Positions 21,236 through 26,597 of a stretch of DNA of 39,551 nucleotides are shown here, one piece after another (the stretch's first letter is position 1; each line of letters starts with the position of its first letter). Under the pieces are notes generated by a model, which saw only the letters and a program-made list of their open reading frames with translations, was not told the origin of the DNA and did not search any database. Both the position numbers and the translations under genes were made by a program. This DNA is from Escherichia phage C5, in the sequence record NC_048079.1; one strand, written 5' to 3'.

Positions 21236-22159
21236 ATGGCTGAATCTAATGCAGACGTATATGCATCTTTTGGCGTGAACTCCGCTGTGATGTCTGGTGG
21301 TTCCGTTGAGGAATATGAGCAGAACATGCTGGCTCTTGATGTTGCTGCCCGTGATGGCGATGATGCAATCGAGTTAGCGTCCGACGAAGTGGAAACAGAA
21401 CGTGACCTGTATGACAACTCTGACCCATTCGGTCAAGAGGACGATGAGGGCCGCATTCAGGTTCGTATTGGTGATGGCTCTGAGCCGACCGATGTGGACA
21501 CTGGAGAAGAAGTCGCTGAGGGCACCGAAGGTTCCGAAGAGTTTACCCCACTGGGTGAGACTCCAGAAGAACTGGTGGCTGCCTCTGAGCAACTTGGCGA
21601 GCACGAAGAGGGCTTCCAAGAGATGATTAATATTGCTGCCGAGCGTGGCATGAGCGTCGATACCATTGAGGCTATCCAGCGTGAGTACGAGGAGAACGAA
21701 GAGTTGTCCGCTGAGTCCTACGCTAAGCTGGCTGAAATTGGGTACACTAAGGCTTTCATTGACTCGTACATTCGTGGTCAAGAGGCTCTGGTGGAGCAGT
21801 ACGTAAACAGTGTCATTGAGTACGCTGGTGGTCGTGAACGTTTTGACGCACTGTATAAGCACCTTGAGACGCACAATCCTGAGGCTGCACAGTCGCTGGA
21901 CAATGCGTTGACCAATCGTGACTTAGCGACCGTTAAGGCTATCATCAACTTGGCTGGTGAGTCTCGCGCTAAGGCGTTCGGTCGTAAGCCAACTCGTAGT
22001 GTGACTAATCGTGCTATTCCGGCTAAACCTCAGGCTACCAAGCGTGAAGGCTTTGCGGACCGTAGCGAGATGATTAAAGCTATGAGCGACCCTCGGTATC
22101 GCACAGATGCCAACTATCGTCGTCAAGTCGAACAGAAAGTAATCGATTCGAACTTCTGA
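21236..22159 (+). CDS. 9: Gene 9 capsid assembly (scaffolding) protein
   Basis: 307 aa MAESNADVYASFGVNSAVMSGGSVEEYEQNMLALDVAARDGDDAIELASDEVETERDLYDNSDPFGQEDDEGRIQ...; acidic; matches T7 gp9. Confidence 0.95.
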   Translation: MAESNADVYASFGVNSAVMSGGSVEEYEQNMLALDVAARDGDDAIELASDEVETERDLYDNSDPFGQEDDEGRIQVRIGDGSEPTDVDTGEEVAEGTEGSEEFTPLGETPEELVAASEQLGEHEEGFQEMINIAAERGMSVDTIEAIQREYEENEELSAESYAKLAEIGYTKAFIDSYIRGQEALVEQYVNSVIEYAGGRERFDALYKHLETHNPEAAQSLDNALTNRDLATVKAIINLAGESRAKAFGRKPTRSVTNRAIPAKPQATKREGFADRSEMIKAMSDPRYRTDANYRRQVEQKVIDSNF

Positions 22160-22172
22160 TAGACTCTGAAAT

Positions 22173-22195
22173 TAATACGACTCACTATAGGGAGA
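22173..22195 (+). promoter_or_regulatory. T7 RNAP promoter phi10
   Basis: taatacgactcactatagggaga, followed by the strong leader tttaactttcttaagaaggagacatacatatg. Confidence 0.92.
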
Positions 22196-22257
22196 CCACA
22201 GCGGTTTCCCTCTAGAAATCATTCTTTGTTTAACTTTCTTAAGAAGGAGACATACAT

Positions 22258-23289
22258 ATGGCTAACATGACTGGTGGACAGCAACTGGGTACTAACCAAG
22301 GTAAAGGTCAAAGTGCTGGTGATAAACTGGCGTTGTTCTTGAAGGTATTTGGCGGTGAAGTTCTGACTGCATTCGCTCGTACCTCTGTGACCACTTCTCG
22401 CCACATGGTCCGTTCCATCTCCAGCGGTAAATCCGCTCAGTTCCCTGTTCTGGGTCGAACTCAGGCAGCGTATCTGGCTCCGGGTGAGAACCTCGATGAT
22501 AAACGTAAAGACATCAAACACACCGAGAAGACCATCACCATTGATGGCCTCCTGACGGCAGACGTTCTGATTTACGATATTGAGGATGCGATGAACCACT
22601 ATGACGTTCGCTCTGAGTATACCTCTCAGTTGGGTGAGTCTCTGGCGATGGCTGCGGATGGTGCGGTTCTGGCTGAGATTGCTGGCCTGTGTAACTTGGC
22701 GAGCACCTATAACGAGAACATCGAGGGCTTAGGTACTGCTACCGTAATTGAGACCACTCAGTTAAAATCTGCACTTACCGACCAAGTTGCGCTGGGTAAG
22801 GAGATTATTGCAGCACTGACCAAGGCTCGTGCGGCTCTGACCAAGAACTACGTTCCGGCTGCTGACCGTGTGTTCTACTGCGACCCAGATAGCTACTCTG
22901 CGATTCTGGCAGCACTGATGCCGAACGCGGCAAACTACGCTGCGCTGATTGACCCTGAGAAGGGTTCTATCCGTAACGTTATGGGCTTTGAGGTTGTAGA
23001 GGTTCCTCACCTCACTGCTGGTGGCGCTGGCACCTCGCGCGAGGATACTTCCGGTCAGAAGCACGCCTTCCCTACCACTAAGAGCGGTAATGACAAGGTA
23101 GCTAAGGACAACGTTATCGGCCTGTTCATGCACCGCTCTGCGGTAGGTACCGTTAAGCTGCGTGACTTGGCTCTGGAGCGCGCTCGCCGTGCTAACTTCC
23201 AAGCAGACCAGATTATCGCTAAGTACGCAATGGGCCACGGTGGTCTGCGCCCAGAAGCTGCTGGTGCAGTGGTTTTCAAGACGGAGTAA
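22258..23289 (+). CDS. 10: Gene 10A major capsid protein
   Basis: 343 aa MANMTGGQQLGTNQGKGQSAGDKLALFLKVFGGEVLTAFARTSVTTSRHMVRSISSGKSAQFPVLGRTQAAYLAPGENLDDKRKD... Confidence 0.98.
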   Translation: MANMTGGQQLGTNQGKGQSAGDKLALFLKVFGGEVLTAFARTSVTTSRHMVRSISSGKSAQFPVLGRTQAAYLAPGENLDDKRKDIKHTEKTITIDGLLTADVLIYDIEDAMNHYDVRSEYTSQLGESLAMAADGAVLAEIAGLCNLASTYNENIEGLGTATVIETTQLKSALTDQVALGKEIIAALTKARAALTKNYVPAADRVFYCDPDSYSAILAALMPNAANYAALIDPEKGSIRNVMGFEVVEVPHLTAGGAGTSREDTSGQKHAFPTTKSGNDKVAKDNVIGLFMHRSAVGTVKLRDLALERARRANFQADQIIAKYAMGHGGLRPEAAGAVVFKTE

Positions 23290-23447
23290 TGCTGGGAGTG
23301 GCCTCAACGGTCGCTGCTAGTCCCGAAGAGGTGAGTGTTACTTCAACCGAAGAAACCTTAACGCCAGCACAGAAGGCTGCACGCACCCGCGCTGCTAACA
23401 AGGCCCGAAAGGAAGCTGAGTTGGCCGCTGCCACCGCTGAGCAATAA
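22258..23447 (+). CDS. 10: Gene 10B minor capsid protein, made by -1 frameshift near the end of 10A
   Basis: The -1 frame opens at G GTT TTC (23272-23277) and encodes QDGVMLGVASTVAASPEEVSVTSTEETLTPAQKAARTRAANKARKEAELAAATAEQ, ending at TAA 23445-23447 just before Tphi; same architecture as T7 10B. Confidence 0.65.
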
Positions 23448-23495
23448 CTAGCATAACCCCTTGGGGCCTCTAAACGGGTCTTGAGGGGTTTTTTG
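23448..23495 (+). terminator. Late terminator Tphi
   Basis: ctagcataaccccttggggcctctaaacgggtcttgaggggttttttg; the classic T7 terminator hairpin plus U-run. Confidence 0.92.
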
Positions 23496-23514
23496 CTTTA
23501 ATGGGAGGAACTAT

Positions 23515-24105
23515 ATGCGCTCATATGATATGAACGTTGAGACTGCCGCTGAGTTATCCGCTGTGAACGACATTCTGGCATCTATCGGAGAACCTCCGGT
23601 ATCAACGCTGGAAGGTGACTCTAACGCAGACGTAGCGAACGCTCGGCGTATTCTCAACAAGATTAACCGACAGATTCAATCTCGCGGATGGACGTTCAAC
23701 ATTGAGGAGGGCATAACGCTATTACCCGATGTTTACTCCAACCTGATTGTATACAGTGATGATTATCTGTCCCTAATGGCTACATCCGGTCAATCCATCT
23801 ACGTTAACCGAGGTGGATATGTGTATGACCGAACGAGTCAATCAGACCGCTTTGACTCTGGCATTACCGTGAACATTATTCGTCTCCGAGACTACGATGA
23901 GATGCCTGAGTGCTTCCGTTACTGGATTGTCACCAAGGCTTCCCGTCAGTTCAACAACCGATTCTTTGGGGCACCAGAAGTAGAGGGTGTACTCCAAGAA
24001 GAGGAAGATGAGGCTAGACGTCTCTGTATGGAGTACGAAGTGGACTACGGTGGGTACAATATGCTGGACGGTGACGCGTTCACTTCTGGTCTACTGACTC
24101 GCTGA
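23515..24105 (+). CDS. 11: Gene 11 tail tubular protein A
   Basis: 196 aa [66 protein letters not shown]... Confidence 0.95.
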
Positions 24106-26570: not shown

Positions 26571-26597
26571 ACAATACGACTACGGGAGGGTTTTCTT

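Follow-up and report, generated by a model that had tools for sequence, protein, structure and literature searches.

A probable T7-type programmed -1 frameshift at the capsid gene's end in Escherichia phage C5, with a conserved slip site and 10B-specific tail

Results

The gene 10 locus and its surroundings

The window considered here is the whole stretch of DNA that was analysed, 39,551 nucleotides of Escherichia phage C5 (record NC_048079.1). To judge from its first 25 kb, which show 98.3% identity over 96% of their length to Escherichia phage N30 (MH717098 / NC_048078, Teseptimavirus N30), it is the genome of a T7-like phage resembling N30. The region around gene 10 (positions 22100-23600) matches N30 fully (100% identity), whereas elsewhere the window and N30 differ; the same region is 99.3% identical to Serratia phage UFV01 and ~93% identical to T7. 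Its features are listed in Table 1. The position homologous to the promoter ahead of gene 10 carries the label "T7 promoter phi10" in the records V01146 and 13a. The gene 10A product, which ends in ...AAGAVVFKTE, matches the Pfam family Gp10A-like (PF21703, E=2.1e-113) with profile positions 1-279 of 279 covered, and the gene itself is 100% identical to that of N30 and 93% identical at the nucleotide level to T7 gene 10.

A second reading frame, displaced by -1, runs across and beyond the stop codon of 10A. Translated from position 23271 it reads GFQDGVMLGVASTVAASPEEVSVTSTEETLTPAQKAARTRAANKARKEAELAAATAEQ before its stop codon, with 56 codons following the Phe (23277-23444). A gap of 7 nt separates this stop from the hairpin of the terminator Tphi, which is identical to the T7 Tphi in our alignment, including a CCCC at 23457-23460. 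The original prediction had described a -1 frame open for 56 codons (QDGVML...AELAAATAEQ) that terminates immediately before Tphi, and on both counts it was accurate, the length and sequence of the frame being exactly as described.

Table 1. Coordinates of the features at the gene 10 locus, as positions in the window
Feature	Coordinates	Strand	Basis	Remarks
phi10-type T7 RNA polymerase promoter	22173..22195	+	consensus TAATACGACTCACTATAGGGAGA	ahead of gene 10, whose mRNA it drives
Gene 10A, major capsid protein, 343 aa	22258..23289	+	ORF	TAA stop at 23287-23289
Slippery heptamer G GTT TTC and invariant next A	23271..23278	+	read from sequence	heptamer 23271-23277, A at 23278
10B-specific -1-frame coding region, 56 codons QDGV...TAEQ	23277..23447	+	translation	TAA stop at 23445-23447
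Hypervariable junction, first 8 tail codons	23277..23300	+		overlaps the 10A stop and the 3 codons before it
ATG in TAATG, start of a 52-aa ORF (23289..23447)	23289..23291	+		used as "gp10B" start in several GenBank records
Predicted 12-bp RNA hairpin, candidate proximal stimulator	23291..23321	+		13 nt 3' of the heptamer
Conserved 18-residue motif LTPAQKAARTRAANKARK	23358..23411	+		within a predicted basic alpha-helix, 23364-23441
Tphi terminator, hairpin and T-run	23455..23496	+	terminator scan	hairpin AACCCCTTGGGGCCTCTAAACGGGTCTTGAGGGGTT, 23455-23490

Anatomy of the slip site

The 3' end of 10A reads ...GCA GTG GTT TTC AAG ACG GAG TAA, with the heptamer four codons ahead of the TAA. Its zero-frame codons are GTT (23272-23274) and TTC (23275-23277), followed by AAG; both the heptamer and its codon position, on Val-Phe codons, are the same as in T7. 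The string G GTT TTC AAG had been placed just ahead of the 10A stop by the original prediction, and it does lie there in the frame described, although the start coordinate given for the feature, 23266, was arbitrary and falls 5 nt upstream of the heptamer. The heptamer does not conform to the X XXY YYZ pattern: a Phe tRNA in the A site can re-pair fully (UUC to UUU), a Val tRNA in the P site only at two positions of three (GUU to GGU). A review of recoding classes the corresponding T7 gene 10 shift site, G_GU_UUU_C, as an "intermediate" heptamer (Atkins et al. 2016; PMC5009743).

The presence of the 8-mer GGTTTTCA (the heptamer and the A behind it) is by itself not significant, with one copy in the window for 1.5 expected on both strands. 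The heptamer GGTTTTC occurs twice on the plus strand of the window, at the slip site and at 26589; we rejected the second copy as a candidate, as it has no coding frame and lies in the untranslated leader just 5' of the ATG of the next gene. Open runs of at least 58 codons follow only 4.7% of the out-of-frame positions in the window. What carries the case is position, frame and conservation, and not counts of motifs or open runs.

The slip site is conserved to its synonymous positions

We compared the locus with 23 loci fetched from relatives, 20 of which have the 8-mer at the homologous codons. The carriers span Teseptimavirus, Berlinvirus, Helsettvirus, Minipunavirus, Kayfunavirus and Caroctavirus, as well as a Klebsiella phage and Citrobacter phage YSYH. 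The same heptamer at the same codon, with a -1 frame open to the terminator, is found in T7, 13a, phiA1122, Vi06-like phages, 64795_ec1, Yanou, Bas102/103, JeanTinguely, ESh3 and UFV01, and also in YSYH, Berlin, fPS16, MmP1, K1F, a Kayfunavirus, CR8 and Klebsiella phage P2234.

Conservation of the heptamer extends to bases that the encoded protein leaves free. Across 19 distinct sequences from seven or more genera, the synonymous sites G1, T4 and C7 (codon third positions) show no variation, whereas, of the 13 other degenerate codons among the 16 preceding the heptamer, 11 vary at the third position. In the same 19 sequences, the residue ahead of the heptamer may be V, L or A, yet the final base of its codon is always G; likewise the residue after it may be K, T or S, yet the initial base of its codon is always A. 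Since synonymous sites are frozen here while neighbouring degenerate codons vary, selection acts on the nucleotide string of the heptamer, beyond the Val-Phe dipeptide that it encodes.

The 10B-specific tail behaves as a coding sequence

The tail shares 53 of its 56 residues with the T7 10B tail, the three differences being D for S, V for A and K for E in the window. Among 12 distinct Teseptimavirus rows, 22 columns vary between 23301 and 23444, and these divide as 5/1/16 over positions 1/2/3 of the -1-frame codons (binomial P=1.8e-4); no third-position bias was seen in the alternative frames over the same columns and rows. Deletions of 21 and 24 nt, both multiples of three, keep the tail in frame in two relatives. 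The first eight codons (the junction in Table 1) are far more variable, with 13 of 24 columns differing among Teseptimaviruses and a distribution of 2/5/6 by codon position that is without third-position bias; such hypervariability is as expected for a junction or linker.

The motif LTPAQKAARTRAANKARK within the tail was also found in K1F-type phages and in a Kayfunavirus. Compared with the window, its codons differ by 11 synonymous and 0 non-synonymous changes in fPS16, 10 and 1 in Berlin, and 12 and 1 in YSYH. Because changes in the motif across genera are almost all synonymous, the tail is under purifying selection as a peptide, and is more than just an RNA element.

Single-sequence AlphaFold2 placed a helix at tail residues 32-57 with a pLDDT of ~90 and left residues 1-31 without structure. 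The tail is thus modelled as an acidic linker without structure, ~30 residues long and with much Ser, Thr and Glu, followed by a basic helix of ~26 residues that contains LTPAQKAARTRAANKARK. A Pfam search of the tail gave no match, while the T3 tail matched Big_2 in the same search. A tblastn search of a 48-aa tail query against the phage collection returned 0 matches, which is uninformative on distribution, as the Ala/Glu/Lys-rich query was likely masked by the low-complexity filter; the distribution of the tail was judged from nucleotide matches and the fetched loci instead.

What lies behind gene 10A is not the same in all phages that we looked at. CR8 and Klebsiella phage P2234 have the same slip site followed by a tail that consists of a ~100-aa domain. 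In Pseudomonas phage IPa-1 the slip site is lost (GGTTATC) and a separate Ig-domain gene lies downstream, and Vibrio phage JSF35 has an in-frame extension.

Candidate stimulatory elements

Upstream of the heptamer, the only Shine-Dalgarno-like sequence is a GGTG located 4 nt to its 5' side, at a spacing that is wrong for a stimulator of the dnaX type; it is replaced by GGCG in YSYH and the Kayfunaviruses, and we discarded it. Downstream, no convincing stimulatory structure was found at the usual spacing of 5-9 nt, the conserved hairpin listed in Table 1 beginning at 13 nt. In 10 distinct Teseptimavirus rows 96.7% of the cells of this hairpin are paired, and it shows one compensatory change from G-C to U-A, a change that on both sides is synonymous in the -1 frame, as well as four switches between G.U and A-U. 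Values as good as those observed were reached in 57 of 500 shuffles, which makes the covariation signal weak, and the hairpin is retained as a candidate. An outer helix of 4 bp that would begin 5 nt after the heptamer is only 82.5% paired. An Rfam scan of positions 22100-23700 matched no family at E<=1.

In T7, stimulation of the gene 10 shift involves a CCCC within the terminator, by the review's count over 200 nt downstream, an effect that has been called unexplained (PMC5009743). By alignment, the CCCC of the window corresponds to this distal element, which is reported to be needed for frameshifting in T7 gene 10; its distance from the heptamer is 186 nt. The G-rich block 3' of the slip site can pair with the 5' arm of Tphi, and in T7, YSYH, Berlin and fPS16 it ranks first or close to first among blocks of the mRNA as a partner of that arm. 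Dinucleotide shuffles of this proximal block pair with the Tphi arm about equally well (a fraction of 0.05-0.47 of them reaches the observed energy or a lower one), so that the pairing signal may be a matter of compositional G-richness and not of a specific helix.

We regard as doubtful, and offer tentatively, a proposition in two independent parts: that the G-rich stretch and hairpin 13-50 nt 3' of the slip site (23291-23321) pair with the C-rich arm on the 5' side of Tphi (23455-23470), and that the LTPAQKAARTRAANKARK helix, which persists across genera despite the dispensability of 10B in laboratory culture, has a specific ligand. Such a pairing could compete with the terminator hairpin and form the long-range stimulator behind the CCCC effect of T7. 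The ligand could be, for example, a nucleic acid or a cell-surface component, and could matter in nature.

Discussion

A T7-type frameshift as the preferred reading

Taken as a whole, these observations make it very probable that the locus is a T7-type programmed -1 ribosomal frameshift in gene 10 that yields 10B. Most ribosomes on the phi10 mRNA would read GTG GTT TTC AAG ACG GAG TAA and release 10A (343 aa). A minority, with GUU and its tRNA-Val in the P site and UUC and its tRNA-Phe in the A site, would slip back by one base, with tRNA-Val re-pairing to GGU at two of three positions and tRNA-Phe re-pairing perfectly to UUU. These ribosomes would then go on with CAA GAC GGA GUA AUG..., extend the chain by 56 residues and terminate just 5' of Tphi, giving a 10B of 396 aa.

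By analogy with experiments in T7 (PMC5009743, PMC8365609, PMC1635266), the frameshift would take place and 10B would be synthesized in the phage of the window as well. In T7 the ratio of 10A to 10B is ~9:1 (PMC8365609), and a shift efficiency of ~10% may be expected here by extension. A 10B fusion is made and incorporated into T7 capsids (PMC8365609, PMC1635266), and 10B is dispensable in T7 and T3 (PMC3276506); if the present phage follows T7, its 10B would likewise be built into the capsid and be dispensable there. The heptamer alone gave <1% shifting in a reporter (PMC1635266), and efficiency thus depends on the context of the site; as in T7, full efficiency would presumably need 3' sequence reaching into Tphi. 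At the level of sequence, this context is conserved in the window. Even so, efficiency could differ from that of T7, because the codons 3' of the site differ (AAG ACG versus AAA GTG). 10B is annotated as a joined frameshift CDS in the records of T7 (V01146), phiA1122, MmP1 and CR8, and the CR8 record mentions mass spectrometry matches.

Alternative readings of the tail

The tail might instead be a separate gene, with termination at the 10A TAA and a restart at the overlapping ATG producing a free "head protein" of 52 aa, which we consider improbable. Such a gene is what the annotation of N30, UFV01, Yanou, Bas102, Bas103, ESh3 and 64795_ec1 proposes, where the tail is a free-standing CDS, and PHROG 12582, which the 52-aa ORF of the window matches (E=1.7e-29), is a family of such free-standing ORFs; these annotations are, however, the output of gene callers and not of experiments. 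The ATG does overlap the 10A stop and has a GGAG just upstream (23283-23286), but only 2 nt separate this GGAG from the ATG, and phiA1122, Yanou, Bas103 and JeanTinguely carry GAAG in its place. The ATG is missing in Vi06-like phages, YSYH, Berlin, K1F and the Kayfunavirus, and each of these retains the heptamer, a -1 frame open back to the heptamer and the tail motif. A separate gene would also leave the frozen synonymous sites of the heptamer without explanation, and the product in T7 is a larger capsid protein present at ~10% of 10A (PMC8365609, PMC5009743).

The same fusion protein could in principle arise at the RNA level, if a T7-type RNA polymerase stuttered on the run of four T and inserted an extra U in a subpopulation of the mRNA. 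The inserted U would give the same V-V-F-Q-D-G junction as a ribosomal shift, and some phage and IS genes do undergo transcriptional slippage (a general topic of PMC5009743). Yet polymerase slippage would require no conservation of G1 or of the C and A at positions 7-8, which are invariant. A run of four T is, moreover, far below the lengths known to give appreciable polymerase slippage, and the origin of the extended product in stuttering seems to us very improbable. The recoding literature, too, treats T7 gene 10 as a case of ribosomal frameshifting (PMC5009743).

That the heptamer and the open -1 frame are a coincidence, or a relic without a functional product, is hardly credible: the 8-mer is no more frequent than expected, ~5% of out-of-frame positions have open runs of this length and 10B is dispensable in T7 and T3 (PMC3276506), but the tail has a strong third-position substitution bias and in-frame indels, its motif persists across genera with nearly all codon changes synonymous, and the synonymous sites of the heptamer do not vary.

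Relation to known frameshift systems

The programmed ribosomal -1 frameshift of T7 10A/10B was reportedly described by Dunn & Studier in 1983 and by Condron et al. and Sipley et al. in 1991, and the feature that we describe is thus already known; it has been kept essentially unchanged from T7. The original prediction had called the T7 10A/10B arrangement conserved, and the comparison sustains this: heptamer, codon position, tail and Tphi all match T7, and heptamer and tail are under selection. Like T7, the window has a homologous capsid gene with the same heptamer on the same codons, a 56-codon tail and a stop just 5' of an identical Tphi. The differences are small. The three 10A-only codons after the site encode K-T-E in the window and K-V-E in T7, the run of G 3' of the site is GGGAG instead of GGGGG, and 10A, like 10B, is two residues shorter than its T7 counterpart. 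Judged at the level of sequence, the locus possesses every element of the T7-type 10A/10B arrangement. The N30 record differs in presenting the tail as a free-standing CDS of 52 aa, a "minor capsid protein gp10B", and not as a frameshifted fusion.

Gene 10 of T3 is alike in that a -1 shift near the end of a homologous capsid gene leads to a minor, C-terminally extended capsid protein (PMC5009743, PMC3276506). It differs in its slip site, CCCAAAG where the window has GGTTTTC, and in its tail, an Ig-like Big_2 domain (PF02368, E=5e-10); no such Ig-like extension is present in the tail of the window, either by Pfam or in the predicted structure, which consists of a linker and a single helix. With the canonical X XXY YYZ sites of E. 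coli dnaX, IS elements and retroviral gag-pol, the locus would share tandem tRNA slippage and the production, at a fixed ratio, of two proteins with a common N-terminal part. It departs from them in that X_XX is G_GU, which makes re-pairing in the P site imperfect (PMC5009743), in having no well-supported structure at 5-9 nt and, with respect to dnaX, in having no upstream Shine-Dalgarno-like element at a dnaX-like spacing. The locus does not belong to the canonical X XXY YYZ cassettes that have a nearby structure, nor does that of T7, whose known stimulator is a distal terminator element.

Implications for annotation and for the Studiervirinae

In N30, in several other Teseptimavirus records and in PHROG 12582, the tail is listed as an independent gene of 52 aa. 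Given the comparative evidence, it should be annotated as a frameshifted join to 10A, as in the records of T7, phiA1122, MmP1 and CR8. Beyond annotation, the comparison yields quantitative evidence that the slip site and the tail peptide are each under selection. Across many genera of the Studiervirinae the 8-mer is fixed, synonymous sites included, and the module behind it has been swapped, being a tail with a basic helix in some phages and a domain of ~100 aa in others. The T7-type tail peptide is itself under clear purifying selection, despite being dispensable in culture.

Variation and annotation of the 10B tail

The C-terminal tail that distinguishes 10B from the major capsid protein 10A has been entered as an independent CDS of 52 (or 45) amino acids in the GenBank records of N30, UFV01, Yanou, Bas102, Bas103, ESh3, and 64795_ec1, and PHROG 12582 ("head protein") is a family made up of such independent 10B-tail ORFs. 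Such a CDS appears to be an artefact of how a frameshifted gene was annotated, passed on from record to record. The record of JeanTinguely carries no 10B annotation at all.

Among Teseptimaviruses, no part of the locus varies more than the eight codons directly 3' of the slip site, which include the last three of 10A (13 of 24 columns variable). This block is flanked by the invariant heptamer and by a nearly invariant segment. Further downstream, in-frame deletions of 21 nt in 64795_ec1 and of 24 nt in a Vi06-like Salmonella phage remove the ARKEAEL part of the predicted helix while keeping the LTPAQKAARTRAA core, and the distal half of the tail helix therefore seems to be under less constraint. 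JeanTinguely has TAG TAA in place of the window's CAA TAA, and its tail is thus one residue shorter at its end.

Positions of features in the window and in loci fetched from relatives (L handles)
Feature	Window	Relatives
Independent-CDS version of 10B tail	23289-23447	N30 (L001) 1490-1648; also L004, L018, L019, L020, L022, L023
Variable codons 3' of slip site	23277-23300	
Nearly invariant segment	23301-23331	
In-frame deletions	23403-23426	64795_ec1 (L004); Vi06-like Salmonella phage (L005)
Altered tail end	23442-23447	JeanTinguely (L021)
Proximal hairpin apex	23301-23313	
Tphi apex	23466-23481	
Slip site GGTTTTCA with -1 extension		P2234 (L010) 822-1118; CR8 (L013) 820-1101
Second GGTTTTC	26589-26595	
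Gene 10 leader	22196-22257	

The apex of the predicted proximal hairpin (GGCC-TCAAC-GGTC) closely resembles that of the Tphi terminator (GGCC-TCTAAAC-GGGTC). Since this likeness is not seen in Berlin, fPS16, and MmP1, it may be a coincidence or a lineage-specific partial duplication.

Other capsid extensions in relatives

Klebsiella phage P2234 and CR8 share the slip site GGTTTTCA, but their -1 extension spans approximately 100 codons and is not a T7-type tail. Part of it is annotated in P2234 as a separate "hypothetical protein", and a Pfam search of the P2234 extension returned no domain at threshold. In Vibrio phage JSF35 (L016), the capsid protein is instead extended C-terminally in frame, without frameshift, whereas Pseudomonas phage IPa-1 (L015) has GGTTATC at the slip-site position and a -1 frame that is not open. 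A separate gene for a "structural protein with Ig domain" lies directly downstream in IPa-1. The arrangements of JSF35 and IPa-1 are alternative ways to decorate the capsid.

A second heptamer and the gene 10 leader

The sole other GGTTTTC on the plus strand of the window lies outside any coding frame, in the leader ...CTATAGGGAGAACAATACGACTACGGGAGGGTTTTCTTATG; a T7-type promoter is found upstream of it, and the ATG of the next gene just after.

The gene 10 leader appears to differ from the T7 "s10" leader in ...AGCGG..., AAATCATTCTTTG..., an extra TTCTT ahead of AAGAAGGAGA, and ACATACATATG. These differences could alter how efficiently this gene, the most highly expressed one, is translated.
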